In this document: positions 1,007 through 34,114 of the stretch, piece by piece | How positions within the stretch are numbered: the first letter of the stretch is position 1 | Layout of the letters: each line of letters opens with the position of its first letter | Assembly: GCA_041391245.1 (NCBI GenBank) | Contig: JAWKOJ010000016.1 | Coordinates: 50,607 to 114,606, forward strand | DNA length: 64,000 nt | DNA from: Caldilineales bacterium | Lineage (GTDB): Bacteria > Chloroflexota > Anaerolineae > JAAEKA01 | Reading direction: 5' to 3' | The notes under the pieces: generated by a model | Told to the model about the DNA's origin: nothing | The model's database searches: none | What the model saw: the letters and a program-made list of their open reading frames with translations, nothing else | Program-made: the position numbers and the translations under genes

Positions 1007-1687
1007 ATGACCCGCCACAATCTCCTGCGCCAGACATCCCTCTTCGCCGGCCTGACGGACGAGGAACTACGGACGCTGGCTCTCGATCTGCACCGCCACA
1101 CCTTCGCAGCCGGCGTCATCCTCTTCCACCGCGGCGCGCCGGGCAACACGCTCTACCTGATGGAGTCGGGCCGCGTGCGCATCTTCCTCCTCAGCGACGA
1201 GGGCCAGGAGATCACCCTCAACTTCCACGGCCCTGATGACTGCTTCGGCGAGCTGGCCTTGCTGGACGGCATGCCGCGCTCGGCCGGGGCAATCACGCTG
1301 GAGCCGACGGTGGTCTACACGCTGCACCGCGACGACTTCCTGCGCCACCTGCACGCCCATCCCCACATCACTGAGAGCATCCTCGCCATGCTCAGCCAGC
1401 GGCTGCGCCAGTTGACCGACTACACCGAGACGCTGGCCTTTTTGGATGTCTACGACCGGGTGGCTGCCAAGCTGCTCGATCTTGCCGGGCGCTACGGCGT
1501 GGCAGGCGACGGCATCCTCATCGATCTGCCGCTGACGCAGGGCGAGCTTGCCACCTGGGTGGTCGCCAGCCGCGAGCGGGTCAACAAGGCGCTGGGCATG
1601 CTGCGCGACCGCGGCCTGATCGACGTGGACGGCAAGCAGATCACCATCCTCGACCCCCAGGGCCTGCGCCGCCAGATCTATCACTGA
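1007..1687 (+). CDS. Crp/Fnr-family transcription factor (cNMP-binding domain plus C-terminal HTH), paralog 1
   Basis: 226-aa ORF. cNMP-binding signature FGELALLDGMPRSA and C-terminal HTH SRERVNKALGMLRDRGLI. Same length as, and clearly paralogous to, the 17437..18117 ORF. Confidence 0.9.
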   Translation: MTRHNLLRQTSLFAGLTDEELRTLALDLHRHTFAAGVILFHRGAPGNTLYLMESGRVRIFLLSDEGQEITLNFHGPDDCFGELALLDGMPRSAGAITLEPTVVYTLHRDDFLRHLHAHPHITESILAMLSQRLRQLTDYTETLAFLDVYDRVAAKLLDLAGRYGVAGDGILIDLPLTQGELATWVVASRERVNKALGMLRDRGLIDVDGKQITILDPQGLRRQIYH

Positions 1688-1714
1688 AACATTTATTGGG
1701 GGAATCGAACAAAG

Positions 1715-1730
1715 TGTGACGAAGGTCACG
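1715..1730 (+). promoter_or_regulatory. CRP-type box TGTGA-N6-TCACG
   Basis: Read directly as TGTGACGAAGGTCACG, between the Crp gene stop (1687) and the small ORF start (1829). Confidence 0.4.
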
Positions 1731-1737
1731 GCCTTGC

Positions 1738-1753
1738 TGTGACGGCATTCATA
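1738..1753 (+). promoter_or_regulatory. CRP-type box TGTGA-N6-TCATA, extended TCATAGCG
   Basis: TGTGACGGCATTCATA followed by GCG. The same half-sites and GCG extension recur at 16798..16813. In both loci 21 nt separate the box from a weak -10-like hexamer (TATCCT at 1775..1780). Confidence 0.45.
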
Positions 1754-1828
1754 GCGCCGGCGCGCTGCGCGTGATATCCTTTGACTAGATGATCGGTCCC
1801 GCAACCTAGTTTCAAAGGAGGCAACACC

Positions 1829-2212
1829 ATGTCACAGCAAGCAGTCGAGATATTGATTGGAAGAGCGGTGGCGGAAGATGAGTTCCGTGCCACACTGTTG
1901 AGCGATCCGGATGCGGCGCTGGCCGGCCACGACCTGACCGGCTCCGAGAGCGCAGCCCTGAAGGCCATGGACGTCGAGGCCCTGGTAGATTACGCCGGAA
2001 CGCTGGATCAGCGGATCTCCAAGTCCATCGCTATCGGCCCCATGTTCGAAGACGGCACCTGGGTGCCCGACCTCAATCCTGACACCCGGTGTCCGCCAAC
2101 GCCGCCCGTCTCTGGCAGATGCGGCACTACTCCGCCGGCTTCTGATCTGAGACCACTTGCAGCGGCGGGTTGCCAAGTCAGGCAGCCCGCCGCTGTCTTG
2201 TTCCCAACGTGA
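1829..2212 (+). CDS. Small leader-peptide-like protein P1 (NHLP/Nif11-leader-like helical N-terminus)
   Basis: ATG preceded by AAGGAGG. N-terminus AVEILIGRAVAEDEFRATLLSDPDAALAGHDLTGSESAAL is shared with three other small ORFs in the window. The Pro/Thr/Cys-rich C-terminal half has weaker codon bias, so the true end is uncertain. Confidence 0.6.
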   Translation: MSQQAVEILIGRAVAEDEFRATLLSDPDAALAGHDLTGSESAALKAMDVEALVDYAGTLDQRISKSIAIGPMFEDGTWVPDLNPDTRCPPTPPVSGRCGTTPPASDLRPLAAAGCQVRQPAAVLFPT

Positions 2213-2228
2213 CGCCAGGAGATCCACC

Positions 2229-2480
2229 ATGTCACAACACACCGTGCAAGCCGTCATTGGCAAGGCGATCACCGACACGTTGTTCCGCCAAAGCATGTTT
2301 GCCGATCCTGCGGCGACCCTGGCAAGCTATGAGCTTACGCCCGAAGAGATGGACGGCCTGCGCGGATCGACTTCGAGACAATGGAGTGTTGCGCGCGTGC
2401 TGGACGACCGCATCGCCAGGGGGCGATGGTGCGACAAGTCTCTGGCGGGTTCGCACGGAGGCCAGCAGCCGGCGCAATAG
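2229..2480 (+). CDS. Small leader-peptide-like protein P2
   Basis: ATG preceded by AGGAG. TVQAVIGKAITDTLFRQSMFADPAATLASYELTPEEMDGL matches the P1/P3 pattern. Between about 2364 and 2390 the family-like residues IDFETMEC lie in another frame, suggesting two nearby indels. Confidence 0.55.
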   Translation: MSQHTVQAVIGKAITDTLFRQSMFADPAATLASYELTPEEMDGLRGSTSRQWSVARVLDDRIARGRWCDKSLAGSHGGQQPAQ

Positions 2481-2504
2481 CCGCTGTCAAAGGAGAAGTG
2501 ACCC

Positions 2505-3935
2505 GTGACCCAAACGATACCGGTGCCTCGGGCATCCGACCAGACGCCGCCGCCTGACCACCAGCCGCGCTCGCTAGACGGGAGCGCAGACGGGAAGTCA
2601 TTGGCCGCGCATCGGCCGCGGGCAGCCTCCGGCGTCGTCTGCAGCCACCTGGTGGGCCGAGACGGTCCGTACTACATCATCAGAACCGCGGACGCCCGGT
2701 CATATCATCGTCTCGATGCCCGCGATTTCTTCTTGTGGCAGCGCATGGACGGTGAGCACACAGTTGTCGATCTCGTGGTCGCGTACTTCGCCGCCTACGG
2801 CTCCTTTGCGCTGGAGCGCGTCACCGGGCTGACGTCTGCCCTGCAAACCGCCGGGTTTCTGGTGAACGAGCAGCAGCCGGGCGGTGGCCAGACGCCGGTC
2901 CGCGATCCGCGTGAGCGGGCTGCGACCGGCTGGCAGTCGTTTCTCATGAAGCAGTTTGCGGTCGGCGGAATCGACCGGCTCGTGGCGGTCCTCTATGCCC
3001 GCGGCGGTCGGCTGCTGTTCACGCGGCCGGCGCAGGTGTTGTTCGCTGCGGTCTCGCTGATCGGCGTGGCGCTATACGTCCGGCTGTGGACGTCAGCATG
3101 GCGACCTGCAGGCGGCAGCGGCGGCGCTGCCGGGGCGCTGCTGTGGCTGGTGCTGCTCAACCTGGTCTCCATCCTGCTGCACGAGCTGTCCCACGGCCTG
3201 ACGGTCAAGCACTACGGGCGGGAGGTGCGGCGGGCCGGCTTCATGATCTACTTTGGCCTGCCGGTCTTCTTCGTGGACACCACCGACATCTGGCTGGAGG
3301 GCAAGCGGGCGCGGCTGGCAGTCAGTTGGGCAGGTCCTTACTCAGGACTGATCCTGGCCGGCATCTGCGGCATCGTGCTCACGATCTGGCCGGAACTGCC
3401 CATCGGCTGGCTGCTCTTCCAGTTCGCCTTTCTCGCCCTGCTGACCGTGTTCATCAACCTCAACCCGCTGCTGGAGCTTGACGGCTACTACCTGCTGATG
3501 GACTGGCTGGAGATACCGATGTTGCGGCGCAGGTCGCTGGCATTCCTGGGCAGCGGGCTGTGGCAACGGCTGCGCGCCGGGCAGCGATGGTCGCGCGAGG
3601 ATCGCATCTTCGCCATGTTCGGGTTGCTTTCCGCGCTCTGGACCGTCTACGCAGTGGCGGTCGGCATCAGGTTCTGGCAGGGGCAACTGGCCGGCTCGCT
3701 GGACCGCCTGGCTCACAGCGCTGGCGGCGCCGACCTGCTACCTGCGCTGGCCGGGCTGCTGATCAGCCTGGTTTTCATTGCTGCTCTGGGCGTGTATCCC
3801 CTGCAACTGGCGCGGCGCGGCTTGCACCGGCTCGTCCGATTCGGCCGGACGCTCGCCGCACGACAATCCCGTCGGCCGCCAACCCCTCGCCTGACTGATC
3901 CTGGCGCAGATGTCCTGCCCCTCTCCCAACGCTGA
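2505..3935 (+). CDS. M50 (site-2-protease family) membrane metalloprotease with PqqD/RRE-like N-terminal domain
   Basis: GTG start after AAGGAGAAG. HExxH (LLHELSHGL) and NLNPLLELDGYY motifs lie within multiple hydrophobic helices. The soluble N-terminal segment YYIIRTADARSYHRLDARDFFLWQRMDGEHTVVDLV...LQTAGFLV resembles PqqD-type peptide-binding domains; this is recognition from memory. Confidence 0.8.
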   Translation: MTQTIPVPRASDQTPPPDHQPRSLDGSADGKSLAAHRPRAASGVVCSHLVGRDGPYYIIRTADARSYHRLDARDFFLWQRMDGEHTVVDLVVAYFAAYGSFALERVTGLTSALQTAGFLVNEQQPGGGQTPVRDPRERAATGWQSFLMKQFAVGGIDRLVAVLYARGGRLLFTRPAQVLFAAVSLIGVALYVRLWTSAWRPAGGSGGAAGALLWLVLLNLVSILLHELSHGLTVKHYGREVRRAGFMIYFGLPVFFVDTTDIWLEGKRARLAVSWAGPYSGLILAGICGIVLTIWPELPIGWLLFQFAFLALLTVFINLNPLLELDGYYLLMDWLEIPMLRRRSLAFLGSGLWQRLRAGQRWSREDRIFAMFGLLSALWTVYAVAVGIRFWQGQLAGSLDRLAHSAGGADLLPALAGLLISLVFIAALGVYPLQLARRGLHRLVRFGRTLAARQSRRPPTPRLTDPGADVLPLSQR

Positions 3936-4107
3936 GGGCGCGTTTTTCAATCAGGCACTGCGCAGACATCGCTCTGGCCGGTCTCCTGACCGCGCCAGCG
4001 CGCTGAAGGTGTTGATTGACGCGCTCTGACCCCCCTACTTCAAAATCACGCCGCAGCCACCGCAACCGGTTTCCCATCCACTCCTCCGAATTCCGGTCGC
4101 CGGACCA

Positions 4108-4136
4108 TTGACGCGCGAGGGTTTGTCTGATATAGT
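4108..4136 (+). promoter_or_regulatory. Sigma70-like promoter TTGACG-N17-TATAGT
   Basis: Hexamers and 17-nt spacer read directly. Lies about 255 nt upstream of the 4391 ATG. Confidence 0.35.
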
Positions 4137-4268
4137 ACAAACAGGAACACGTCGATTTCAGTCACTTTATTTGGGGCCCGAGCGGCATTGCAGGAAGGTA
4201 TCAGGTCGTAGCAAGGGTTTGAGGGAGTTGGGGACCTGACCCTCAGACAGCATGGCAGGCCCGAAAGG

Positions 4269-4289
4269 TGTTGACAAAGTGAGTCAACA
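4269..4289 (+). promoter_or_regulatory. Perfect 7-bp inverted repeat TGTTGAC-N7-GTCAACA (candidate operator)
   Basis: Read directly in the long leader upstream of the first cyclase-STAND gene. Confidence 0.3.
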
Positions 4290-4390
4290 TGGTGGAGTCA
4301 CACAGTCGCTTGCCCGCTTCCGCCGGATGACGGGCAATTCAACGCGTCCGCAGCTTCAATAACACGGCAACCGCCGCCTGGGGTAGAGCT

Positions 4391-7300
4391 ATGACATCAT
4401 TCCAGCCAGACCCGGCCACGACACCCGACATTCCGGTCGGGACTGTCACGTTTCTCTTCACCGACGTCGAAGGCTCGACACAACTGCTGGCGCGACTGCG
4501 CGACCGATACACGGAGCTGCTGGCGGAGCACCACCGACTGCTGCGCGAGATCTTCGCCCGCTGGGGTGGACGCGAGATCGGCACCCAGGGCGACTCCTTC
4601 TTCGTTGCCTTCCCCCGCGCCGGCGACGCCATCTGCGCGGTAGTCGAGGCACAGAGAGGCTTCGCGGACCACCAGTGGCCGGAGGACACCGAGGTACGCG
4701 CCGCATGGGTCTGCACACCGGCGAGCCCTGGGTGGTGGCCGAGGGCTACGTCGGCATGGACGTCCACTGCTGCCCGCATCGCCCACGCCGGCCACGGCGG
4801 GCAGGTCGCTCTCCGAGACGACCCTCGCTGGTCGCCGATGACTCCTGCGGTGTGAACCTGCTGGACCTGGGACGGCACCAGCCAGACATGCCGGCCCGAA
4901 CGCCTCCAGCAACTGGTCATCGACGGCCTGCCAGTGAGTTTCCTCCTCTCATGTCCGAGGCTCTGCCGCCCGCCTATCCCGGCAAGCTGAGCGGCAACGG
5001 CATTCGAACCGGGAGTCGGGGCAGTCCTACCGCGGGCTGGCGGCCTTTCGTGGACGACGCGCCGTTCTTCTTCGGCGCAAGACCTTCACCGAGCAGCTTG
5101 CTGCTTCAGTGCGTCAGCAAGATCTGGTGGCCGTCATCGTTGGCCCTTCCGGCTCCGGCAAGTCGTCGGTGGTTTTCGTGCTGCCGAACTGCTCCAGGAT
5201 GGTGGGTGGCTGGCGGTATCCTTGCGTCCCGGTGGCCGCCTTCCACGCTCTGGGACGCGCTGCTGCTTCATCTGGAGGGAGACCTCAGCGAAGCCGACCG
5301 TCTGATCGAGGTGGAGAAGCTGGCGCGAGCCATGGCAGCGGGCGAATTGCCTCTTCCACATCGTCTTGCGTATCCTGAACCGGCGCCCCGACGTCCAGCG
5401 CCTGCTCCTGGTCGTCGACCAGTTCGAGGAGCTGTTCACCCAGCGGCCGGATCCGGCGGAACAGCGTCAATTCTGGACGAACGCTGCGCCAGCGCGGCCC
5501 AGTCGGCCGGCTTGACCTCGCCGCTGGTGGTGTTGCTCACCCTGCGCGCGATTTATGGGCCAGGCGTGGCCACCGGCCCTTCGCCGACGCACTGCAAGAC
5601 GGCTCGCTGTTGCGGGTCCTGAACCGGGCGGAGTTGCAGGCAGTGGTCGAAAAGCCGCCGAGCGGGCGGCCTTCGAGACCGGACTGGTGTCCCGCATCTG
5701 GACGACGTGGGCGAGGAGCCGGCAACCTGCCGCTGCTGGAGTTCGCCCTGCTCTGGAGCGATGGACCGGGCTGGCTGACCCACGAAGCTACGACGCCATC
5801 GGCCGGGTGGAGGGCGCACTGGCCCGCTACGCCGAGGAGGTCTTCGAAGCGCTGCCCGAACCGCAGCAGCCTGCCGCGCAGCGCATCTTTGTCCAGTTGG
5901 TCCAGCCTGGCGAAGGAACCGAGGACACCCGGCGGGTGGCCAGCCGGGCTGAACTGGGCGACGAAAACTGGCGGTTGGTGCAGCATCTGGCCGACAAACG
6001 GCTGATAGTCACCGGCCGCGACGCGGCAGGTCAGGAAACGGTAGAGGTGGTCCACGAGGCGCTGATCCTGGGCAGCGGCGCGCGGCTGGATCGGCGCGAC
6101 GGGCTTCCGCGCTGGCAGGAGGCTGCGAGCCGCCATGCGCCAGTGGCAGGCCAACGACCGACGAGGGGCGCCGCGCGCGCCGCTGTCCGCCGAGACGCTG
6201 GCCGAACGCGGCGACGAACTCAGCCCGGCCGACGCACTTCATCGAGACAGCGTCGCTCGCCGCGAGCAGCCCGGCGTGAGCGGGCGGCGCATGATTATCG
6301 CGGCTGGCGAGTGCCTGCATCGCCCTGATCCTGCTGAGTGGCCATCTACCAGGGACCGCCACAACACGCTGAGGAGGTCCAGGCCGCTGCCGCTGAGGCG
6401 AACGTGCAAAAAGAGATCGAGGTAGCCGCCGCTACGGCCAGGCAACGCCGAGGCGAGGCCCAGGCGCGCCACCGCCCAGGCACAGACCGACCGAACGTTG
6501 CGGCGAAGAGAAGTCGGCACGCACGCCCAGGCGAACGCAGAGGCAGCGAAGTTGACGCCTGACCCAGCCAGCATCGGTTGGTTCCCAGTCGATTCAGGAG
6601 TTGCAGGTGGATTCCGGAGCGGGCACCACTTCTCGCTTGGAAGCGTTGGAGAACTACCCTACACCCGCAGGCCGAACGTGCTTGGGCCAGGCGGTCTTTT
6701 TCAACCACTTGCACACGTTCTATCCCACGAAGAGTGAACACCGCTTTCTGGTCACCGGATGTACATCGTTACGGCCACGACAAGGTAGCTCGCATATGGA
6801 CGCCGAACGGCGAGGAATTGTTCACCCTTCACCCTGAAGAAAAGGATGTGGGGGTGGGATGGTCACCAGACGGCGAACGGGGGTCATTGAAAACCTGACA
6901 ACCGGTATGGAAGCTTCGACAGGCAAACGCCTGTTTGATCTGACTGGTCACGAGGCAGCATGCATGTACCAAGTTGGTCACCCACTGGCGACCGCATACT
7001 ATCCCCAGCGACGACCAAACAGCCCGGATTTGACGCGCCACGGCGAGGAGTTGGCCGTCTTCAGGACACAACGCGACAACCTGACCTGCGGCCGTTTGCA
7101 CACCTGAATCCGCAGCCTGGTCGACGGTCATGTGGTAACCCACGACTACGCTGGGGAGGTTTTTATCTGGGATCCTGCCACTGGCGAGGAGTTGCTCCAA
7201 CTGCGTGGACATGTCGACTGGGTCAATACCGCCATGTGGGCACGACGGCCAACGGCCGCTACATCCAGCGACGACGCCACGGCAAAGATCTGGGATGCCA

Positions 7301-8565
7301 CCACCGGCGACGAATTGCTCAGTTACCTGGACCAGCGTAATAAATGCCGTCTGGTCGCCGGACAGCACAAGAGTATTGCTAACCTTCGATCTGCCTGATC
7401 CCGCCGTCATGTGGGATACATCCACTGGCGATGAAATCTTCAAATTCCGCGAGCAGATGCCGATCAAGGGAGCCGAATGGTCCGACGATGGCTCCCTGAT
7501 TGTCACATCGGACATTGACGGCAGCACCATGGTTTGGCAGTTCTCGGCAGTCTTACAATCCAGGGAAATGCTGAAGTAAATGAGACAGAATGGTCGCCCA
7601 CGTATGACCAGATACTGACCGCCAGCAGCGAGGCACTGCGAAGGTTTGGGACGTCGCAGATGAATTGACGGAGCAGTGATTCAACGATGGGCCGGGTTTC
7701 GACCGGCTGTTTCCAGCGGCGACGTACGCAGCTACGTGATGCTCGGTCAGGGTATTTGACCGAAACCGGAACGAATTGCTTTGACGCCAACACAGGAAGG
7801 TGTCCAGAAGAGTCGCATCAGTTCCGACACAGTCTCGCCGTCAGGGGAGGAGATTGGGAGTTTACTGGGGCGGAAAGCAGAACCTGGGATGCCAGGACCG
7901 GGGATCCTTTGGGAAGTGACACGCGATACCGATCTGTATGCAGGCGAATGGTCTCCGATGGAACCCGCTTTGCGCTTGGATGGGTCGAGGCGTAATCCAG
8001 GTCTATGATGCCGAACGGCCAAGAGTTGCTTTCGTACGACGGACATCCACCGGCGAAATCACCTGGATGCGCTGGTCACCGGATAGCAGCCGATTTGTGA
8101 CCACGGACAACTCGAGATCAACATTGGGAGCCCCACCGGCGAATTGTCCTTGATCCAAATCCGACAGACACATATCGAGTCACGCTGTCGCGGGTCGGCA
8201 GATGGGAGCGGCTAGGCCTCGGAGACGATGGCGTCCTCTCCATCCGGGACGCCACCACCGGAACCTTGCAGAGTATGCTGGACAAGCACAGGTGACCTGG
8301 ATCGATGTTCCCAGCACAGGATCGATCACCAGCGACAAGGGTAGATCAAGATCTGGGACGTTGAATCCGGTGCAGAAGTAGCGAGCCTCACGTTTCCTGA
8401 CATGTATATGGCGGCGTTGTCGCCTGATGGCCACCAGGTATTGGTCACGACACGCTCTGGACCGATGATCTCTTCGATATCTGGCAGTCCGCGAGGATTG
8501 ATCGACCTGGCGGAGTGCCGTCTTCCGCGACGACCCGAGAACGGCAGCAGTTCGGCTCCGCGTAG
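4391..8565 (+). pseudogene. Class III adenylate/guanylate cyclase - nSTAND1-like NTPase - WD40 repeat protein, heavily frameshifted (copy 1)
   Basis: Homologous peptide fragments are spread over all three + frames. Cyclase: GTVTFLFTDVEGST, GDSFFVAF, RMGLHTGEP, AARIAHAGHGGQV. Walker A: LVAVIVGPSGSGKSSVVF. Also QRIFVQLVQPGEGTEDTRRVASRAELG and WD40 units (SSDDATAKIWDATTGDELL, VWSPDSTRVLL). Family-typical C-terminal ERQQFG is followed by TAG at 8563. Confidence 0.75.
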
Positions 8566-8600
8566 TGAGGCCGAATAGCATCAGGGTTGTGGAGGTACAC

Positions 8601-11600
8601 GAGCGAACAAGCAATCTGGAGCCGGCATCACCCTGTCACGCACGAGGCTCGCACAACGGTTGACGATCATTGCGTCTGCGCAGCAGCTCTGCGGGAGTCC
8701 GCCCGCCCGAGACGGCAAGGGGACGGTGGTTCGCCGACCTGGAGGTGACCGCCCTGGCGACATTGGCCGGAGAGTGCAGGCGCTGCCATGGGGTCACCCG
8801 CGAGCCCGGGGTGCTGAGGTACTCGGCGACGCAGCTGCCTCTCGCCGCGGCCACGAGGTTGCTCTCCGAGACGACGGTCGCTCTGGTGTGCGACGATCTG
8901 CCGGAAGGCGTGCATCTGCTGAACATGGGAAGGCACCAACTCAAGGACATGCGCCGTCCTGAGCAGATCCAGCAACTGGCCATTGATGGCATGCCGAGGA
9001 GTTCCCCTCCGCTCAACTCGCTGGTGTCGCTCGGCCAACCGGTCCTGGCAGCGGATGGCAACGGCGTGCGCGAGCCGCGCACCGTCGGCGCGTGCCGCCC
9101 TACTGCGGCCTGGCAGCCTTCCGCGAGCTGGACGAAGGCGTCTTCTTTGGCCGCGCAGGTGTTCACCGGCCAACTTGTCGACTCGGTGCGGCAGCAAGGG
9201 CTGGTGGCTGTGATCGTCGGACCGTCGGGGTCGGGCAAGTCGTCGGTGGTCTTCGCCGGGCTGCTGCCGCTTGCAGCGCAACGACGGCTGGCTGCTGGCA
9301 ACGCTGCGCCCCGGTGGACGACCGTTCCACGCGCTAAGTCGGCGCGCTGCTGCCGCTGCTGGACGACCAACTGGGCGAGACCGACCGGCTGATCGAGGTA
9401 GAAAAGCTGGCGCGCGCGCTGCGCGCGGGGGAGTTGTCGCTGCACCCGGTGGTGGAGCGGGTCTTGCAGCGACATCCAGACGCCCAACGGTTGCTGTTGG
9501 TCGTCGACCAGTTCGAGGAACTGTTCACCCAACGACCCAATCCCACCGACCAGCGCCAGTTCCTGGACGAGGGCTCGCTGGCAGCCAGCCGGGCGGCATC
9601 CGACCGATGGACATCGCGGTTGGTGGTGCTGTTGACAATGTGCGCTGATTTCATGGGGCAGGCGCTGACCCACCGTCCATTCGCCGACGCCCTTGCAGGA
9701 GGGATCGCTGCTGCTGGGTCCCATGAACCGCAGCGAGTTGCAGGCTGTGGTGGAGAAGCCGGCCGAGCCGCGCGGCGCAGCCTTCGAGACAGGCCTGGTG
9801 GCGAGGATCCTGGACGACGTGGGCGAGGAGCCTGGCAACCTGCCGCTGCTGGAGTTCGCCCTGTCGCTGCTGTGGGAGCGGATGGATCAGGGCTGGATGA
9901 CCCACGAGGCGTATGACGCCATCGGCCGGGTGGACGGCGTTGGCCCGCTATGCCGAGGATGTCTACAGCGGGTGCCGTTTGCCGGCCAACAGGCCGCCGC
10001 CCAGCGCATCTTCATCCAACTGGTCCAGCCGGGCGAAGGAACCGAGGACACGCGCCGGGTTGCCAGCCGGGCTGAGCTGGGCATGACCCGCATTGGCCGC
10101 TGGTGCAGTACCTGGCAGACAAGCGGCTGATCGTCACCGGCCAGGACGACGCCGGTCGCGCAGACGGTGGAGGTGGTGCACGAGGCGCTGATCCGCAGTT
10201 GGCAGCGGCTGCGTTTCCGGATCGGCGCGGATCGGGCCTCCTGCGCCTGGCAGGAGGGGCTGGTGGGCCGCCATGCGCCAGTGGCAGGCCAACGAGCATG
10301 ACGAGGGGGCGTTGTTACGCGGCGCGCCGCTGGTGGCCGCCGAAACCTGGCTGGCCGAACGTGGCGACGAACTCAGCCCGGCCATGAGCGCAGCTTCATC
10401 GAGACCAGCGTCGCCTTTCGCGCCAGCGAGCAAGCCCGGCGTGAGCGACGGCGGCGCATGATTATCGCCGGTCTGGCGAGTGGCCTTGTCATCGCCCTGA
10501 TCCCGCTGGGTGTGGCCATCTACCAGGGGAACGCCGCCACCAACAGCGCTGAGGAGGTCCAGGCCGCTGCCAGCAGTTGAGGCTGAACGTGCAAAAAAAA
10601 GAGATTGAGGTAGCCGCTCGCTCCACAGCCGAGGCACAGGCTTTGATCCAGGCCAGCATCGGTTTAGCATCTCAATCGGTGCTGGAGCCCAACGTGGGGT
10701 TCCAGAGCGTGCCGTTCCCTTTCGGGCTCTTGAGGCTGTGGAGAACTATCCGTATACCTGGCATGCTGAACGGGCTTTGAGCCAGGCTGTGTTCGGAAAC
10801 CATCTACGACAAGTTCTTGTCAACGACGGTGGCGTGAATACAGCCCTCCTTTGGTCACCCGACGGCACTCGACCGTGACGGCAACCGACAAGGAGGCAAG
10901 CATTTGGGATGCCGTAACTGGCGCTCTACTATATGTTCTTCAACCCGATAGTCCAATGTACGGTGCCGGTTGGTCTCCCGATGGGAGTCGCGCTTGGATC
11001 AACGGGAACGGTTTCGCATCGCTTTGGGATGCAATGACTGGGAGCACTTGTTTACACTCAGCAGCCACGAAGGCTGGTTGAGTATGTTGAGCTGGTCACC
11101 AGATGGCAGCCGTATTCCACAACCGGCCAGGATACCACAGCCCGGATATGGATGCTTCCACTGGACAGGAATTGGTCCTTTTTCTCAGGTCATGGTGCAG
11201 CCTCTTTCTTCCTGTGTTAGTCAATGCACACCAGAAACGTCGGCCTGGTCACCCAACGGCGAGCGTGTTGTTACTATGGACGAAGCTGGCGAAGTGTTCA
11301 TCTGGGACCCCGGGACCGGGCAGGAACTGCTCGAATTGTCGGGGCATACAGCGTGGGTCGACAGCGCGATCTGGTCACCGGACGGGCGGCGAATTGCTAC
11401 AAGCAGCGACGACAACACGTCGAGAATCTGGGATGCCAACACGGGCGAAGCAGTTGGTTCAAATACACTGGCGATGGCGGAGAGGCATACGCCAGATGGT
11501 CACCAAAAGGCGATCGAGTGTTGTTGATCTACAGCCTGAACGATCTGTTGGTAGTGTGGGACGCCAATAGCGGCGAGGAGATTGTCAACTTTCGCATCAT

Positions 11601-12817
11601 GAGAACAAGGTTCTGTGGGCCGATTGGTTCGCCGGATGGCTCACGCATTGTTTCGGGAGGTCAAGATGGCAAAGCCTTGATCTGGGACAGCGCCACCGGT
11701 GAGGCATTGTACGAATTCGCAGGCCATGCCAAGGATGTCAACTTCGTCAGATGGTCGCCAACCAACGATCAGATCGTCACAGCAAGCGACGACGGCACCG
11801 CCAAGATATGGAGCCTGACAGCCCAAATGACGGCTATGGAGATTCCGGGGACCCCGGTGGCGCTTGGGCGCTTGACTGGTCTCCCTCCGGTGATCGTGTT
11901 GCCCGGAACTATATGGACGGTTCAGTACACATATTCGACGCCGTGACGGGGGAGTGAGTTGGCAGCCACCGAGGCCCAAAGCGGACGCAATAGGGCAATC
12001 GTGAACGTCGAGTTCTCGCCCCTCGGGAGATGAAATATTGACTGCTGCCATTGGTGGGTTGGCAGCAGTCTATGACGCTAGCACAGGGGAAAAGCGAATA
12101 CAGGTTGGCGAGGAGACGACCTGGGGTTTCAACGATGCTGCCTGGTCTCCCAACGGTAACGAGTTTGCGACCGGCTCCTGGGACGGAAGCGTCCAGATAT
12201 GGAATGCGCAAAACTGGGGACTTGCGCTTGACTTCAACGAACATCGGGGCACCAGTTTCCGGTTGCTTTGGTCACGGCATACGCGAACGTATCGCGTCTA
12301 CCAGCGAAGGCCAGGCCATCATTTGGAACTCCTCGACCGGCGAGGTCTTGGCTAGTCTGTATCCAGAGGACTTCGAATTCGATCTCGGTCAACCTTCCTA
12401 GTCCCCCGATGGCACACGTCTGGCCCCTGCCAGCAGTGGACGGGAAGATCACTATCTGGGATACTGCTACGGGACAATCTCTCAACACACTTCCCGGCCA
12501 GCGGAGCTGCGATCGCGTTAGTCAGTTGGTTTCCAGAACAGGATCGCATCCTGACGTCCGACTGGGGCGGCAACATCAAAATATGGGACATCGCCAGGAA
12601 CAGAAGTTGCCAGCTTTGCTTTTCCCACAACAGCTTGGCAGGTCTTCTGTCGCCCGATGGCCGCCAGTTTGTGGAGGGCGTGTGGCCTGATGGCCCGCTG
12701 GTCATTGTCAATGTCTGGCAGAACCTGGGAAGAATTGAAAGATCTGGCCCAGGAGTGCTGCGTCTTCCGCGACCTGACGTCGGATGAGCGGCAGCAGCTC
12801 TGGTTTGCCGCCGGTAG
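8601..12817 (+). pseudogene. Cyclase - nSTAND1-like NTPase - WD40 repeat protein, frameshifted, start codon lost, cyclase domain partly deleted (copy 2)
   Basis: Fragments across frames: GLVAVIVGPSGSGKSSVVFAGLLP, LLLVVDQFEELFTQ, QRIFIQLVQPGEGTEDTRRVASRAELG. Many WD40 units, e.g. IVSGGQDGKALIWDSATGEALYEFAGHAKDVNFVRWSPTNDQIVTASDDGTAKIW. The 5' end is homologous at DNA level to the N-terminus of the 12857 gene but lacks the ATG. Confidence 0.7.
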
Positions 12818-12856
12818 TGCAGGCCGAATAGCAGACTGCGTTGTGGAGAATTCACG

Positions 12857-15800
12857 ATGTCCGAAGGTACCAATCTGGAAGCGGCGATCGCCGTGCTCGA
12901 AGCGCAACGAACCGTGCTCGGCGATGCAACGGTCGATGCGTCCATCGCTGTCCTGCGCCGGCAACTTGCGGAGTCCCGAAACGGCCCTGCCCGACGAACA
13001 GCGCAAGCTGGTGACGGTGCTGTTCGCCGACCTGGCCGGCTGGACCGCCCTGGGCGAGCAGTTGGACCCGGAGGAGGTGCAGGCCATCCAGCGCGCCTAC
13101 TTCGACGCGGTCACACCGCCCATCGAGCAGCACGGCGGCAGCGTCGAGAAGTACATCGGCGACGCAGTGCTGGCCGTCTTCGGGGTCCCGCAGGCGCACG
13201 AGGACGACCCCGAGCGCGCCGTCCGCGCCGCCCTGGCCATGCAGGACGCGGTCGCTGCCCTGAACACCACGCTCGCAACATCGTCCAACTCTTCCTCTGC
13301 CCTTCTGACCTCTGTTCTTCTGCCGTCTGTCCCTCTGCCACTCTCCCTGCGCATCGGCGTCCACACCGGCCTGGTGGTCAGCAGCGTGGACGAGAGTGGT
13401 GACTTCGTGGTCACCGGCGACACGGTCAACCTGGCATCGCGCCTGCAAAGCGCCGCCGAGCCGGGCACTGTGCTGATCAGTGCGGAGACGCACCGGCTGG
13501 CCGGCTCTGCATTCGAGACGGAAGCTGTCGGACCGCTGGCGGTCAAGGGCAAGGCCGAGCCGGTGTCCGCTTGGCGCGTCCTGGCCATCAAGCCCGCGGC
13601 GCCCAAGCTGCGCGGCATCGCCGGGCTGGACTCGCCGCTGGTCGGCCGAGCGGCTGAAATGACAGCCCTGCGCGAGGCGCTGAACTACCTGCAGCGCGGT
13701 GTCGGCGGCATCGTCACGGTCGTGGGCGAGGCCGGCATCGGCAAGTCGCGCCTGCTGGCCGAACTGCGCAAGTCGCAACAGCTTTCCGACCAGCGACCAG
13801 CGATCACCGTCCACTGGCTCGAGGGCCGCTGCCTCTCGTTCGGCGCCACTATTCCTTACCTGCTTTGGCTGGACGTGCTGCGCAGCGCGCTGGAGGTAAG
13901 CCTGGACGACCCGTCGGAGGAGGTGATCGGGCGACTGCGAGCCTGGACGGAGAACTTTTGCCCGGACCGCATCTCCGACGTCTTCCCCTATCTGGCCCGC
14001 CTGATGTCGCTGCCGCTGGACGCCGAGACCCTGGCCGACCTGACGGAGCTTGACGGGCAGACTCTCAAGCAACGCACCTTCCAGGCGGTAGAAATCGCGC
14101 TGACCTGCGCCGCCTACCGCCAGCCGCTGGCGGTGGTGTTGGAGGATCTGCACTGGGCCGATCCCAGCTCGCTGGAGTTGCTGCAACATCTCGTTCCTCT
14201 GATCGATCGCTCGGCGCTACTCTTGATCCTGGTCTTCCGGCCCCACGCCGACCACGGCTCGTGGATCGTGCGCGAGACCGCCGGTCGTGACTACCACCAT
14301 CGCCACACCGACTTGTGGCTGCAGCCGCTGTCGGCTGCTGACAGCGAGGCGCTGGTGGGCAACCTGCTGCGGGTCGACGCCTTGCCGCAGTCGCTGCGCT
14401 GGCGCATCCTCGGTCGCGCCGAGGGCAACCCCTTCTTCGTCGAGGAAGTGATCCGCACCCTGATCGACATGCAGGCCATCGCCTACGACCCAACCAGCGG
14501 CCGCTGGCTGGCCACCCGCGACCTGGCCGAGGTGCCGATCCCGGAGACGTTGCAAGGGGTGATCGCAGCCCGCATCGACCGCCTGCATGGCGACACCCGC
14601 CATGTGCTGCAACTGGCGTCGGTGATCGGTCGCATCTTTCTCTACCGCGTGCTGGCGGCCATTGCCGCGGAGGAACACGCACTGGACGACAGGCTGCTGG
14701 CCTTGCAGCGGGAGGAGTTGATCCGTGAGCGGGCGCGCATCCCCGAACTGGAGTACATCTTCAAGCACGAATTGACGCGCGAGGCGGCCTACAACGGCAT
14801 CCTCAAGCGCCAGCGCAAGCAGTTCCACCGCCAGGTGGCCGAAGCACTGGAGCGACTCTTTCCCGACAGGGTTGATGAAATGGCCGGACTGCTGGCATAC
14901 CACTGGGAGCGGGCTGAGGAGTTCGACAAGGCGACCGGATGCTTGTTGACGGCCGGCGAGCAGGCGCAGTTTGCCTATGCACTCCACGAGGCCGCCGGCT
15001 TCTACGAACGCGCCTTGCTGTTGCTTGCCGAGGGGCAAGACGCCGATCGCCAGGCGCACGTGTCTGCCAGGCTGGGGATAATCCACCAGACCGCCGGCGA
15101 CTACAAGCGGTCCCGGGCCGCCTTCCAAAACAGTTTTGTCTTCTGGGAGCAGGCGTCAAGCCACTATCTTCAGTGGGGATCCTCCTCGCCCCCGGCTCCC
15201 CATCCGCTCCGCTTTCCTGCAGACGAGCCTGAACGCCTTTGTCCGATTACCATACAAGGGGGCCATAACTGGCGCCTGCTCTATCACCTTTTCCGCGGCC
15301 TAAATCGCTGGTCCTCGGTCATGGATACCAATGCTTTGGCCGACGTGGCAAGTTCATGGGAAGTATCCGAAGACGGTCGGCGGTACCTTTTTGGTCTACG
15401 CCAGAACACGACATGGAGCGATGGCACGAGGGTTTCCGCTGGCGACTTTGAGTATGCATGGCGTTACCGACTCGATCCTGGCGTCGGTGCTGCCATGGCC
15501 CCAATGCTTGATTTCGTCCAAGGAGCGCGAGCCTTTCGTATGGGAGAAGAAACCGACCCCGCCAGCATTGGCGTTCATGCGCTGGATGACGTCACACTAT
15601 CGATAGAAACTGAGAAACCCTTGACTTTGCTGCCATATCTCGTAGCCAACCTACCCACTTACCCCGTTCCACGCCATACCATTGAACGCTACGGTGAGGC
15701 TTGGACCGATCCTGATAATCTGGTGACCAATGGTCCGTTTCGGCTGGAGTCCTGGCGGCGCGGCGAGTCGATGACCGTCGGTCTGGATCCTGGCTACGAC

Positions 15801-16712
15801 CGGCCGGTCTACGGCAACATACGGCAGGTGCAGTTGTACTTCCTGCCTGACGCCGAAGCGGACCTTGCGATGTACCAGGCCGATCTCCTGGATGTGATCG
15901 ATCTGTCAGGTTTCCCGCTGCCGATGTTGGACGATCTCCGAAGGCGTTACAGCGAGGAGTTTCGTACGTTATCCAGCTATGGCCTTGATTGCCTGATCTT
16001 TCAAACCTCGCGCCCGCCGTTCGATGACCCCCAGGTACGCCGCGCCTTCGTTCATGCCGTCGATATCGAAAAGCTGGCCAACAAAGTTCTGATGGGTTAT
16101 GAACTTCCGGCCACTATGGGCCTGTTCCCACCAGGCTTTCCCGGCCATTCATCGGCTAGCGTCCTGGCACACGATCCAGAACAGGCCCAAGCGTTGCTGG
16201 CCAAGGCTGGCTATCCGGCCGGTCGCGGCCTGCCCGTTGTCGAGCTTCTTGCCGGCGGCGCGCCGGGAACCGCGGCGTGGAGCCGTCGCACCGGGTTCAA
16301 CACCGCCATTCTTGATTACGTGGCGACGCAGTGGCGGGAGGTGCTAGGGGCCGACATAGACATCCAACTCATCACGTATCTTGCACTGCGCAGCCGGCTC
16401 AAAGTACTCGTTCCTGACGTAAGATTGACCTTCTTCGAGCCCAACTATCCCGATCCTGAAAGTTTCTTGAGCTTATTCAGCACGTTCAGCCTGTGGAAGG
16501 ATTCTCGCTGCGAGCACCTGCTGGCTGCTGCGAGAAAGGAATCAGACATCGCCAGAAGAATGGCGCTTTTTGAGGCAGCGCATAAACATATCCTGGACGA
16601 GGCAACCATAGTGCCCCTTCTCTACCGGTTGGACTACTACCTGATGAAGCCCTGGAATCGCGTTGGCAAGGGCGGACGGTATTGGCAGGACTTCGTGCTG
16701 CTGCCGCATTAG
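12857..16712 (+). CDS. Class III cyclase - AAA/STAND-type ATPase - TPR - family-5 solute-binding-protein (OppA/DppA-like) domain fusion; one N-terminal frameshift
   Basis: Cyclase motifs KLVTVLFADLAGWT, EKYIGDAVLAVFG and GDTVNLASRLQ; P-loop GEAGIGKSRL. The C-terminal ~480 aa carry SBP_bac_5-like sequence (WSDGTRVSAGDFEYAW, LVTNGPFRLESW). The first ~38 codons (MSEGTNLEAAIAVLEAQRTVLGD...) are in another frame than the rest, with the shift near 12965-12990. In-frame ATGs at 12924 and 12936 are alternative starts. Confidence 0.75.
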
Positions 16713-16797
16713 TCGCAACCATCCGGTGCAGCACCAGGGCAGTCGGCCACAGGTGCTGGCGGAAACATCCTCAATTTCCGCGAGTTCCTCCTCCAGT

Positions 16798-16813
16798 TGT
16801 GAACTACTTCATA
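16798..16813 (+). promoter_or_regulatory. CRP-type box TGTGA-N6-TCATA, extended TCATAGCG
   Basis: TGTGAACTACTTCATA followed by GCG. 21 nt downstream lies GACAAT (16835..16840), which places the box centre near -41.5 of a predicted start. Confidence 0.45.
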
Positions 16814-16882
16814 GCGCAACCAGCCGTTTTGTGCGACAATAGGGATGCGGCAACATAATTCAAGGCAAAGGAGGATGGGGCA

Positions 16883-17128
16883 ATGACCAGACGCGCCGTG
16901 GAAGCTATCATTGGGAAGGCAGCGTTGGACGAGGAGTTTCGCAACGCCTTGTTTGCCGATCCTGACACGATCCTGACCGGGTTCCCGTTGACAAGAACTG
17001 AACGGGTGGCACTCATGGCAATCGACTCCGAGTCGCTGGAGTTCTTCGCCACCAGCCCCGGCGTGCTGATGGCCCAGTCCCTTCTTCTTCAACTCAACAC
17101 CCACGAGGGCATCATGCCGAGAGATTGA
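16883..17128 (+). CDS. Small leader-peptide-like protein P3
   Basis: ATG preceded by AAGGAGG. AVEAIIGKAALDEEFRNALFADPDTILTGFPLTRTERVAL matches P1/P2. Confidence 0.65.
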   Translation: MTRRAVEAIIGKAALDEEFRNALFADPDTILTGFPLTRTERVALMAIDSESLEFFATSPGVLMAQSLLLQLNTHEGIMPRD

Positions 17129-17328
17129 TGAGGGTCGGACAACCAGTCCGGCGCTGGCCGAACCGGTTTGTCGTTCCCGTTTGCCTGGAATCCCCCCTTC
17201 ACGTTCCCAGGTTGCCGCTTGCATGCGAACGACGATGTTTTCCGAGCTTGATTCCAACCCCTCTCCATCCATTTTGCCCCTGGTTTCCAATCAGCACAGC
17301 GTTGCAGCACAGCCGCCTCTCGACGCGG

Positions 17329-17357
17329 TTGCTTTTCTCTACCTTCTGAGCTATACT
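17329..17357 (+). promoter_or_regulatory. Sigma70-like promoter TTGCTT-N17-TATACT
   Basis: Read directly, about 80 nt upstream of the Crp paralog 2 start. Confidence 0.3.
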
Positions 17358-17436
17358 CCCTGTCGCCACATTCAATGGAAATGGTGGTTCGTCCCACAGT
17401 CCGATATACCACGCTGACCAATCGCGCTGGAGCACC

Positions 17437-18117
17437 ATGTCTCAGGTGGATCTGCTGCGCAAAGCCCCAATATTCGAAAGCCTCAGCGATGCTGAGCTGC
17501 AGGCGCTGGCTGCCAGCTTGAAGCAGCGAACTTTTGCGCGCGGCGTCGTGATCTTTCACAAAGGAAGTCCAGGGAACTCGCTTTACCTCATCGAGTCGGG
17601 CAAGGTGCGGATCTTCATCCTCAGCGACTCCGGCCAGGAAATCACCATCAACACTCATGGCCCGGAAGAGTGCTTTGGCGAGTTGGCGCTGCTGGATGGA
17701 CTGCCTCGCTCGGCCAGCGCGGTCAGCCTCGACCGCACGACCAGCTACGTGCTCCAGCGAGAAGACTTTCTGGCAATCCTTGAGTCGCATCCGGGCATGG
17801 TGCGCGCAATTCTTGCACTGCTGAGCGGAAGGGTTCGCCACGCGACCGCGTACGCCGAAAGCCTGGCCTTCCTGGATGTCCAGAGCCGGATCGCGGCGAC
17901 CTTGCTGGCACTGGCCGACCGCCATGGCATCGAGCGGGAAGGGATCGAGATCGACCTGCGGCTCACGCAGAGCGATCTCGCGAGCTATGTCGCGGCCTCC
18001 CGCGAGAGCGTCAACAAGGCGCTGGGCTGGCTGCGCGACCAGGGTCTCGTGGAAGTGGACGGACACACCGTCATCGTGCTCGATGCACAAAGACTGCGCG
18101 ATCTGATCCAGTACTGA
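17437..18117 (+). CDS. Crp/Fnr-family transcription factor, paralog 2
   Basis: 226 aa. FGELALLDGLPRSA and SRESVNKALGWLRDQGLV. Paralog of 1007..1687. Confidence 0.9.
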   Translation: MSQVDLLRKAPIFESLSDAELQALAASLKQRTFARGVVIFHKGSPGNSLYLIESGKVRIFILSDSGQEITINTHGPEECFGELALLDGLPRSASAVSLDRTTSYVLQREDFLAILESHPGMVRAILALLSGRVRHATAYAESLAFLDVQSRIAATLLALADRHGIEREGIEIDLRLTQSDLASYVAASRESVNKALGWLRDQGLVEVDGHTVIVLDAQRLRDLIQY

Positions 18118-18130: not shown

Positions 18131-18983
18131 ATGCAGACTCGTCGTTTTGGCCGCACAGGCCATATGAGCACCGTAGCCATCTTTGGCGCGGCCGCGCTGT
18201 GGAAGGCCACGCAGGCAGAGGCTGACGCCGTCGTGGAACAGGTGATAGCCGCTGGCGTCAACCACTTCGACGTTGCTCCCTCCTACGGACTGGCTGAAGA
18301 GCGCCTGGGACCGTGGATGCCGCGCCTGCGCGACCAGATTTTCCTCGGCTGCAAGACCATGGAGCGGGATGCGGCCGGCGCCGCCGCGGAGTTGCGTCGC
18401 TCGCTGGACCTGCTGCAAGTCGACTCGTTCGACCTATACCAGATCCACGCCGTGGAGACCATGGCCGATCTGGACGCAGCAACCCGGTCCGGCGGCGCGC
18501 TGGACGCAATCGTCAAGGCGCGACGAGGGGCTGACCAGGCACATTGGAATCACCGGCCACGGCGTCCAGTCGCCGGCCGTATTTCGCGAGGCACTGCGCC
18601 GCTTCGACTTCGACTCGGTGCTGTTCCCCATCAACTTCGTGCAGTTTGCCAACCCTGAGTACCGGCGCCACGCCGAGGCGCTGCTGGGCTCGTGCCGATC
18701 AAAAGATGTGGGCACCATGATCATCAAGGCGATCACGCGCAGTCCGTGGGGCGACATGCCAAAGACGCACCAGACCTGGTATCGGCCGTTCACCGACCCG
18801 GACGACATTCAACGCGCGGTCAACTTCGCGTTGTCGCTGGATGTAACCGGCCTCTGCACGGCCGGCGACCCCAAGGTGCTGCCGCTGATGCTGCGCGCCT
18901 GCCAGGAGTTCCAGCCGCTGGACGTGGCGCAGCGCCAGGCAATGATTGATACGGCCGCTACGTACGAGCCCCTTTTCGTCTAG
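18131..18983 (+). CDS. Aldo/keto reductase, interrupted by one frameshift near 18520
   Basis: N-terminal part in ORF 18131..18658 (RFGRTGHMSTVAIFGAAAL, DLYQIHAV). The continuation EGLTRHIGITGHG... is in ORF 18273..18983. The junction at GCGCG looks like a 1-nt deletion. Confidence 0.75.
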
Positions 18984-34111: not shown

Positions 34112-34114
34112 CCC

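Follow-up and report, generated by a model that had tools for sequence, protein, structure and literature searches.

A Chloroflexota gene cassette joining a Crp regulator, NHLP-type precursor genes and an RRE-M50 protease: probable cyclic nucleotide control of peptide maturation

Introduction

What brings two Crp-type regulators, several small open reading frames (ORFs), a membrane protease and a row of cyclase genes together on one strand of a bacterial genome? The question is raised by a 64,000-nucleotide stretch (hereafter the window) of contig JAWKOJ010000016.1 from a Caldilineales bacterium (assembly GCA_041391245.1), having a GC content of ~63%. In an earlier note, made from the letters alone, its first 18 kb were described as a self-contained circuit, in which cyclic nucleotides (cyclic nucleoside monophosphates, cNMP) produced by three cyclase genes act through two flanking Crp proteins on the expression of processed or secreted small proteins. 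Following domain searches with Pfam and NCBIfam models, all objects named in that note were found at the positions given there. The island reads, on the plus strand, Crp1, the small genes P1 and P2, a protease with an RRE (RiPP recognition element, RiPP being a ribosomally made peptide that is modified post-translationally) fused to an M50 domain, the disrupted genes A and B, a cyclase-AAA-SBP5 gene, P3 and Crp2 (Table 1).

We consider it likely that the core of this island is a cassette, conserved in Chloroflexota (Anaerolineae/Caldilineae), for leader-guided, proteolytically matured peptides under cNMP/Crp control. As a rule, ribosomal peptide systems are recognised by their tailoring enzymes, and how they are regulated is seldom known. 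Here, it is the cNMP control layer that defines the cassette, comprising a Crp protein with a class II tandem-site promoter, cNMP-binding domains on the leader peptidase of relatives, and linked STAND cyclases.

Results

Conservation of the cassette in related loci

Related loci were collected by scanning one genome per species with an alignment of the protease, resulting in 513 relatives; the 80 best of these were retained and represent 79 distinct loci. Together with two loci fetched earlier, these make up the survey set of 81 loci (numbered L001 onwards), which was searched with locally built profiles of the island families.

The order Crp, one to three precursors, optional M16 peptidase, RRE-M50 protease is kept in the closest ~20 loci (L001, L003-L018, L021 and L029). 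Protease identity ranges from 33% to 79% across loci, and is ~40% at its lowest among the ~20 loci that keep the order. A precursor lies at most 4 kb from the protease in 40 of the 81 loci, a cNMP-binding domain is found in 41 and both in 27; 14 of the 15 Crp-type regulators detected belong to precursor loci. The 27 loci with the most distant protease type carry neither a precursor nor a cNMP-binding domain and serve as an internal control. Co-occurrence in related genomes had been set beforehand as a test of the earlier note, and the combination of Crp, precursor and RRE-M50 indeed recurs in ~20 loci.

A two-domain M16 (insulinase-type, HxxEH) peptidase is encoded between precursor and RRE-M50 in nine relatives (L005, L006, L007, L009, L010, L014, L017, L021 and L029). 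The clade of the window has no M16 gene and carries a second precursor paralog at that place. Besides M16, no tailoring enzyme was seen between precursor and M50 of the relatives. A cyclase-AAA-SBP5 or cyclase-STAND gene is adjacent in L001, L003, L004, L005, L012, L015 and L018, and a different arrangement is present in L054, L062 and L065. Further cNMP-linked neighbours in relatives are fusions of cNMP-binding and PP2C domains, which like the STAND cyclases are often encountered there, a fusion of a major facilitator superfamily (MFS) and a cNMP-binding domain, an HD-domain protein and a response-regulator-cyclase-HD protein. In L008 (8714-9445) and L018 (8178-9137) an HD-domain protein, possibly a cyclic nucleotide phosphodiesterase, is encoded between two precursor genes, each of which has its own tandem CRP boxes.

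The precursors combine a conserved leader with a hypervariable tail

P1 to P4 all reach the curated cutoff (40 bits) of the NCBIfam model NF038399, 'Os1348 family NHLP clan protein', which bears out the proposal that these small ORFs form one family; all four match PF14407 (Frankia_peptide) below its gathering score of 48. When a profile of 23 leaders from the window and its relatives was compared with known structures, the Os1348 crystal structure 6LK7 ranked first (E 1.1e-10); behind it came nitrile hydratase alpha, structures of NHLP leaders and SonA, a LigA-like precursor. PosA and PflA, homologues of Os1348, are RiPP precursors for which modification has been shown by experiment and in which the N-terminus serves as the leader (PMC12636437). 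When 1.84 billion proteins were searched with the P1 leader as single query, 393 cluster representatives were retrieved; the precursor family is thus real, if of modest size.

In 58 of the 68 family members from related loci, the leader closes with the junction L-D-[EDQ]-R-[IVL]-[ST]-K, which ends at residue 65 in most. P1 and P2 carry it as LD[QD]RI[SA][KR] at residues 59-65, followed by a variable tail. The P1 leader is 67-71% identical to those of its orthologs in L001, L003 and L004, with which its tail is unalignable; the same holds across the family, where tails cannot be aligned even between orthologs with ~70% identical leaders. Tail length ranges from 2 to 309 residues (median 13.5), and the types include short hydrophobic or aromatic tails (WGY, SGLL, GPYW, IF), mid-sized tails and long tandem repeats. 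The last residue of P1 is Thr, and its orthologs end in Ser or Ala. This leader/tail pattern, together with the linkage to RRE-M50 in ~20 loci, supports the idea that the small proteins are processed.

Tails of 160-310 residues were observed in L012 (8817-9770), L013 (489-1286), L014 (7225-8349), L004 (9186-9872) and L028 (13683-14543). They are built either from short units repeated in tandem (for example GVPAIDRGGEELT ~11 times, and GITGDHGVTGAS-like units) or from sequence of low complexity, rich in Ala/Asn or in Pro, and such precursors could be multi-core ones.

In P2, frameshift-aware alignment revealed two compensating frameshifts in a GCGCG-rich stretch, near 2361 and 2399; when the part between them is read in the other frame it gives IDFETMECCAR, identical to the orthologs. 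In P3 the junction motif is absent in all three frames, and its leader is nearest to the L005/L006 type (53-59% identity).

Promoter architecture of the first precursor gene

The whole 64 kb was searched with the pattern TGTGAN6TCAYA, allowing at most one mismatch. Four sites were found, three of which are the distal and proximal boxes of P1 and the box of P3. This raw count is not above chance, being reached in 13 of 100 shuffles, so that placement and cross-species conservation carry the weight.

In every locus with an adjacent Crp gene, the promoter of the first precursor gene has the same layout: a near-perfect TGTGA-N6-TCACA, 7 bp, TGTGA-N6-TCAT(A/G), 17 variable nucleotides and TGnTAnnAT. 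Both the 23-bp spacing of the boxes and the 17-nucleotide gap to the extended -10 are constant in all 21 promoters from adjacent-Crp loci, and the spacers vary in sequence. The box consensus is matched at nine or more of ten positions in 21 of 66 precursor upstream regions, compared with 0.7% of random 200-nucleotide windows, and all 21 matching regions belong to loci with an adjacent Crp gene and none to other loci. The distal box of the window is kept in L001, L003, L004 and L015, a near-perfect TGTGA-N6-TCACA standing at the same position in ~20 loci; in L001 both boxes are kept while the flanks diverge. The proximal box stands ~29 bp ahead of the extended -10. Boxes centred at about -41.5 and -64.5, as counted from the -10-like element rather than from a mapped transcription start, point to class II activating geometry.

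The proposed link from regulator to small gene is supported by the recurrent Crp-precursor-RRE-M50 order and by tandem boxes whose distance to an extended -10 is fixed. The claim that the promoters of the small genes next to the regulators share one CRP-type box stands for P1 (two boxes) and P3 (one box); no CRP box was found upstream of P4. P3 retains the proximal box only, as compared with the tandem pair of P1; it is followed after 18 nucleotides by TGcGACAAT (16832-16840), and GCGC continues the proximal boxes of both genes.

The protease is an RRE-M50 fusion

The M50 motifs HExxH and NxxPxxxxDG are present in the window's protease, and H226, E227, H230, N318, P321 and D326 are invariant in an alignment of 30 homologs. 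The protein has several hydrophobic segments. An AlphaFold (AF2) model (predicted local distance difference test, pLDDT, 80.9) has residues 44-115 folded as a winged helix, with a helical membrane core after it, and DSSP assigns to the former three strands (44-51, 54-61, 67-71) and then three helices (72-80, 87-98, 103-115). When the model was submitted to Foldseek, SpoIVFB was retrieved at a probability of 1.00, as were the lasso-peptide RRE proteins TbiB1 / 6jx3 (probability 1.00; TM-score 0.72-0.75, target-normalised). At the sequence level, PF05402 (PqqD) was matched by 17 of 18 N-terminal segments of the family, the segment of the window itself giving E 0.017, and a sequence-only search of the PDB with the RRE profile reached PqqD only at E 0.98. 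On the predicted structure, the N-terminal domain is PqqD/RRE-like. Motifs, hydrophobic segments and fold thus agree with peptidase family M50 and with an N-terminal RRE, as the earlier note had it. The closest curated models are the daptide protease model NF041824 and the YydH/LiaK model (50 bits).

RRE domains bind leaders and deliver substrates, and leader removal in daptides is the work of a site-2 protease that has an RRE fused to its N-terminus (PMC10036551). Many relatives of the window's protease are longer, ~1100-1170 residues, and carry two cNMP_binding domains at the C-terminal end. In the long protease of L004, a linker of ~350 residues (residues ~520-900; 11252-12499) between the M50 core and the cNMP_binding pair has no Pfam match.

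Crp regulators

Both Crp paralogs were confirmed by their cNMP_binding and HTH_Crp_2 domains; they are 58% identical to each other. The closest PDB relatives of Crp1 are GlxR and M. tuberculosis Crp. In an alignment of Crp1 with GlxR (4BYY), the FGEL...RSA contacts to the nucleotide (cAMP) and the SRE.VNKAL recognition helix are kept; Crp1 therefore has the domains, the nucleotide-contact residues and the DNA-recognition residues of a CRP/GlxR-type regulator.

Crp1 is 88% identical to the Crp encoded 5′ of the precursors in L004, and Crp2 shares 56-60% identity with every cassette Crp. The layout in which two Crp genes bracket the island is not conserved, the relatives having a single Crp gene 5′ of the precursor. 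With P3 lacking the junction and Crp2 being only 56-60% identical to the cassette Crps, P3 and Crp2 are a second, divergent and partly degenerate module of the same kind rather than the far end of a bracket.

Cyclase genes and disruption of the reading frames

The intact cyclase gene of the island encodes a class III cyclase-STAND fusion, in which Guanylate_cyc, AAA_16 and SBP_bac_5 domains were all recovered; the TPR region that had been assigned to it was not found by Pfam at E 0.01. The protein scores 288 bits against TIGR03903 (cutoff 706). Its cyclase domain aligns best with CyaB (3R5G), with both metal-binding Asp residues and the Lys, Asn and Arg in place. Neither a signal peptide nor a convincing transmembrane segment was detected in the protein, which would place the action of its SBP_bac_5 domain in the cytoplasm. 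Orthologs adjoin the cassette in L001, L005, L015 and L018. The true start is uncertain (~12857-12924), an in-frame ATG at 12924 being an alternative. The first ~90 codons of the ORF (12657-12990) look non-genuine and overlap the tail of gene B, and an ortholog-guided alignment begins at ~12836-12857 in another frame, with a shift near 12989.

Genes A and B were compared by frameshift-aware alignment with an intact 1511-residue protein of L004 (nSTAND1 411 bits, plus WD40), the gene of which follows the protease exactly at the place of the broken copies. By their identity to this protein, the two had rightly been described as cyclase-nSTAND-WD40 genes with frameshifts; they proved far more broken than that description implied (41 and 34 frameshifts) and are recognisable only as disrupted copies. 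The claim of three cNMP-producing genes is accordingly reduced, at most one cyclase gene being demonstrably intact.

The same alignment method gave no events in Crp1 and P1, and 0-2 events in M50 and cyclase-SBP5, all of them in poorly conserved N-terminal parts. Uniform sequencing error was excluded by these low counts in the neighbouring genes, and a collapsed or unpolished tandem repeat was excluded by the DNA identity of genes A and B, which is only 75%. Taken together, the two genes have 75 frameshifts against 5 nonsense codons, which is unusually indel-heavy for natural decay, and either real decay or a locally poor consensus accounts for their state; the disrupted region (4302-12828) may be a locally poor assembly consensus in a strain-variable insert. 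With 34-41 frameshifts per gene beside intact neighbours, the reading frames should not be taken at face value without the raw reads.

L001, the closest relative, has no genes where the window has the A/B region (4302-12828). Directly after Crp2, an aldo/keto reductase gene is split over two frames (18131-18658 and 18273-18983), which suggests a frameshift. Among relatives from one long-read series of metagenome-assembled genomes, genes split over many frames occur in L015 (6862-11339; SBP5, M50) and L018 (9851-15424; M50, cyclase), so frame disruption is not unique to the window.

Table 1. Features of the island and its surroundings, with positions in the window.
Feature	Position	Strand	Score or sequence	Description
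Crp1	1007..1687	+	cNMP_binding 84.8 bits, HTH_Crp_2 67.1 bits	GlxR/M. tuberculosis Crp-like cNMP receptor regulator, 226 aa
Distal CRP box of P1	1715..1730		TGTGACGAAGGTCACG	~-64.5 relative to inferred start
Proximal CRP box of P1	1738..1753		TGTGACGGCATTCATA	~-41.5; 23 bp from distal box, centre to centre
Extended -10-like element of P1 promoter (inferred)	1772..1780	+	TGaTATCCT	Aligned with related promoters
P1	1829..2212	+	NF038399 67.7 bits	NHLP/Os1348-family precursor; 65-aa leader ending LDQRISK, 62-aa tail
P2	2229..2480	+	NF038399 56.9 bits	Second precursor paralog; LDDRIAR junction
RRE-M50 protease	2505..3935	+	Peptidase_M50 E 1.7e-4	Intramembrane metalloprotease of M50 (site-2) type with fused RRE; short form, no cNMP-binding domains
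Sigma-70-like promoter	4108..4136	+	TTGACG-17-TATAGT with TG	Ahead of gene A; consensus match only
Gene A	4391..8556	+	61% identity over 1366 codons to L004	Disrupted cyclase-nSTAND1-WD40; 41 frameshifts, 3 stops
Gene B	8576..12828	+	70% identity over 1420 codons to L004	Disrupted cyclase-nSTAND1-WD40 paralog; 34 frameshifts, 2 stops
Cyclase-AAA-SBP5	12657..16712	+	Guanylate_cyc 90 bits, AAA_16 87 bits, SBP_bac_5 203 bits	Class III cyclase - AAA_16 STAND - helical arm - SBP_bac_5; intact
CRP box upstream of P3	16798..16813		TGTGAACTACTTCATA	Single, proximal type
P3	16883..17128	+	NF038399 59.9 bits	Divergent precursor paralog without LD(E)RISK junction
Crp2	17437..18117	+	cNMP_binding 92.6 bits, HTH_Crp_2 66.7 bits	Second Crp, separate lineage
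P4	20263..20565	-	NF038399 40.7 bits	Marginal family member in a DUF5317-P4-histidine kinase operon

Comparison with known systems

That the island cannot be mapped onto any described system, as the earlier note had stated, does not hold for its parts, which are known: NHLP-type RiPP precursors of the Os1348/PosA kind (PMC7726476, PMC12636437), the RRE-site-2 protease of daptides (PMC10036551) and a parallel system of actinobacteria (PMC7159879). No description of the assembly as a whole (Crp with tandem sites, NHLP-type precursors, RRE-M50 and STAND cyclases) was found in the literature searched, which did not include the founding paper of PF14407. The parts are thus known families, and their wiring to cyclic nucleotides appears undescribed.

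P1 to P3 have in common with Os1348 and PosA-PflA of Pseudomonas (NF038399, PF14407, 6LK7) the NHLP/LigA-like helical leader domain, and both families lack the double-glycine cleavage site typical of NHLP leaders (PMC12636437). The Pseudomonas clusters contain GNAT, alpha-ketoglutarate HExxH enzyme, MNIO-nitroreductase and efflux genes, have no protease and are under Gac/Rsm control (PMC7726476, PMC12636437). Here, in contrast, the partners are Crp, RRE-M50, M16 in relatives, and cyclases, and the tails are hypervariable and without the Gln-run/ARMD motif of Os1348/PosA-PflA. Among the annotated ORFs at 1-25 kb, no partner of the Pseudomonas type (GNAT, alpha-ketoglutarate HExxH, MNIO-nitroreductase/SagB-like) was found.

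With the daptide peptidase MpaP/DapP (NF041824), the protease shares the architecture of RRE plus intramembrane site-2 protease and the presumed removal of leaders at the membrane (PMC10036551); it differs in serving precursors of another family and, in many relatives, in having two additional cNMP-binding domains. A daptide cluster as such was rejected, the protease scoring 164 bits against a cutoff of 300, and no DUF-RRE accessory protein, oxidative decarboxylase, aminotransferase or methyltransferase being encoded in the island. Daptide precursors end in Thr, as P1 does and its orthologs do not. The peptide-processing systems of actinobacteria follow the same logic, with a metallopeptidase, a small, fast-diverging precursor giving rise to a C-terminal peptide, STAND proteins with repeat sensors and an occasional cNMP-sensing factor (PMC7159879, section 24). 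They use a soluble zincin-like peptidase, FxSxx-COOH-type peptides and radical SAM enzymes, whereas the present cassette, found in Chloroflexota, has an RRE-M50 membrane protease and NHLP-type leaders and lacks radical SAM enzymes.

Tandem cNMP-binding domains are also tied to the handling of NHLP-clan peptides in TIGR03896, a cyanobacterial family from the NHLP/Nif11 studies that is associated with bacteriocin transport and has two such domains. The window's Crp and solo cNMP-binding proteins score 24-34 bits against this model, far below its cutoff of 161. The TIGR03896 protein is found with HlyD and C39-ABC exporters instead of a protease, and no link to Crp or to CRP boxes is known to form part of its definition. 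In Gram-positive bacteria, an Eep-type M50 protease frees a short C-terminal pheromone from a small precursor, and the pheromone is sensed via OppA and TPR (RRNPP) receptors. The resemblance is one of analogy only: an OppA-family SBP_bac_5 domain and a helical repeat arm occur here within the cyclase-STAND protein, but the solute-binding domain is fused to a cytoplasmic cyclase lacking a signal peptide, and the readout would be cNMP and Crp. No Opp permease or RRNPP regulator was found. Assignment to Pycsar or another catalogued defence system was rejected as well, PADLOC returning only domain-level PycC and cNMP-binding matches, with no TIR or transmembrane effector and with the protease unmatched.

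Proposed mechanism and alternative explanations

In the mechanism that we propose, a class III cyclase-STAND ATPase would make cAMP, or another cNMP, once its sensor domain is engaged, this sensor being SBP_bac_5 in the intact cyclase and WD40 in its two disrupted neighbours. From gene linkage we infer that it is these cyclases that supply the Crp proteins. Nucleotide-bound Crp1 would occupy the tandem boxes, the proximal box taking the place of a -35 element (class II), and would drive transcription of P1 and P2 and probably also of the protease gene, the successive gaps being 16 and 24 nucleotides. The PqqD-like RRE would then dock the 65-residue, NHLP/Os1348-type helical leader of the precursor, upon which the membrane-embedded M50 site would cut at or just past the LD(E/Q)RISK junction, freeing a tail with a possible role as signal or toxin. 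The two fused cNMP-binding domains in many relatives probably allow direct gating of the protease by the same messenger.

One extension would close the loop: the freed peptide or leader would be recognised by the OppA-like SBP_bac_5 domain of the STAND cyclase, raising cAMP and feeding back through Crp on the precursor promoter. We regard this as doubtful. If true, it would amount to a strain-specific autoinduction or kin-recognition circuit in filamentous Chloroflexota, and its intramembrane protease and STAND adenylate cyclase would be the first to be gated by a cyclic nucleotide and to sense a peptide, respectively. Should the proposed mechanism itself hold, it would offer a testable case of second-messenger control of peptide maturation in a poorly studied phylum, and the role of a hypervariable peptide family as signal or weapon would become examinable. 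For mining and annotation, an RRE-M50 gene with NF038399-family ORFs and CRP boxes can serve as a signature.

Several points weigh against peptide maturation under cNMP control as the function of the cassette. All underlying data come from uncultured genomes, and the window's copy is partly degraded (two frameshifts in P2, no junction in P3, genes A and B disrupted). A cyclase lies within 10 kb in only 11 of the 81 loci, and the second purine-specifying residue of the intact cyclase is Val, where Asp or Thr is usual, which leaves its nucleotide product uncertain. The protease stays below the gathering score of the Pfam M50 model (21.5 against 27.2 bits) and below the cutoff of the daptide model NF041824 (164 against 300 bits). 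Many tails of the family comprise only 2-5 residues and some only 2-4, which is short for a bioactive product, there is no exporter or modifying enzyme among the annotated ORFs of the window's island, and Os1348 itself was detected full-length in cells (PMC7726476). The last three points would also suit a different role, in which the small proteins are folded regulators that are not cleaved, and M50, as a regulated intramembrane protease, cuts some other substrate while the small protein is bound by the RRE-like domain as cofactor or inhibitor, comparable to the control of SpoIVFB. Os1348 forms a dimer in the crystal (PMC7726476), and SpoIVFB complexed with pro-sigmaK is the structure that matches the protease core best. 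An adaptor role of this kind nevertheless seems to us quite unlikely: a junction strictly kept at residue 65 with an unconstrained tail behind it, long tandem-repeat tails as in L012, L013, L014 and L028 among them, is the signature of a leader with cleaved cargo, RREs are known to bind leaders and deliver substrates (PMC10036551), nine relatives have a second peptidase, M16, encoded between precursor and M50, and no candidate for another substrate, for example an anti-sigma factor, is conserved in the vicinity.

The same components could instead serve conflict or programmed death in a multicellular bacterium, with the WD40, TPR and SBP sensors of STAND proteins detecting an invader or damage and switching on the cyclase domains, cNMP activating the gated M50 and PP2C, Crp boosting the toxin precursors, and the hypervariable peptides killing or arresting the cell or its neighbours. 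Cyclase-nSTAND1-WD40 proteins are typical of the systems catalogued in multicellular prokaryotes (PMC7159879), and modules of a metallopeptidase and small peptides with STAND ATPases, sometimes with CRP-like factors, have been described there (PMC7159879, section 24); hypervariable tails, cNMP-binding domains fused to an enzyme effector, generic matches of the cyclase and cNMP domains to Pycsar models, and the apparent turnover or decay of genes A and B are further features in its favour. We nonetheless think this function rather improbable, given that the PADLOC matches are at domain level only, with the protease unmatched and no Pycsar-type transmembrane or TIR effector, and that a transcription factor acting at a class II promoter speaks for a slow and regulated response, not for abortive infection. 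In addition, the PP2C, MFS and HD partners resemble ordinary signalling components, no phage or mobile-element context was seen, and the tails have no recognisable toxin domain. That common signalling genes of Chloroflexota are merely juxtaposed, with the boxes as chance matches, would agree with the number of box sites in the window not exceeding the shuffled expectation, with the abundance of Crp, cyclase and STAND genes in these genomes and with the second Crp, P4 and the solo cNMP-binding gene not being conserved parts. It is highly improbable, however, in view of a gene order that recurs in ~20 loci at protease identities down to ~40%, and of box spacing (23 bp) and distance to the -10 that are fixed while the spacers vary. 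Moreover, protease and cNMP-binding domains form one polypeptide in relatives, both precursor and cNMP-binding domain are missing from the 27 distant-protease loci, and the loci, with protease identities of 33%-79%, are not near-identical copies of one mobile segment. We therefore retain leader-guided, proteolytic peptide maturation under cNMP/Crp control as the likely function.

Neighbouring genes in the window

Two genes outside the island had been linked to it. P4, counted as a fourth family member, is above the NF038399 cutoff by a small amount (40.7 against 40 bits); it has no junction motif, shares at best 27% identity with any other member, lacks a box and lies in a different operon, and is probably not part of the cassette. 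On the minus strand (19268-24921) lie its operon, which consists of DUF5317 (membrane), P4 and a HisKA/HATPase_c kinase and has terminator-like hairpins at its bounds, and next to it a gene for a 1095-residue AAA-TPR-BTAD regulator.

The stand-alone cNMP-binding protein that had been placed nearby is a real ORF (34593-35111); in fact, it ends a hydrogenase/Hdr operon situated 16 kb away. This operon (27095-35111) encodes proteins of the CCG-domain and Fe-S/flavin oxidoreductase (Hdr-like) kinds, an MvhD/FlpD-like protein, the small and large subunits of a NiFe hydrogenase, a HycI-type protease and finally the cNMP-binding protein. A perfect palindrome, TATGATCTGGATCATA (FNR/CRP-like), is located at 26660-26675, ~430 nucleotides upstream of the operon.

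Scans of the window for tRNA genes and Rfam families gave no match. The GC content dips to 0.553 at 44001-46000 (~0.63 elsewhere), and long ORFs with high GC at the third codon position (GC3) are nearly absent at ~43964-46880.

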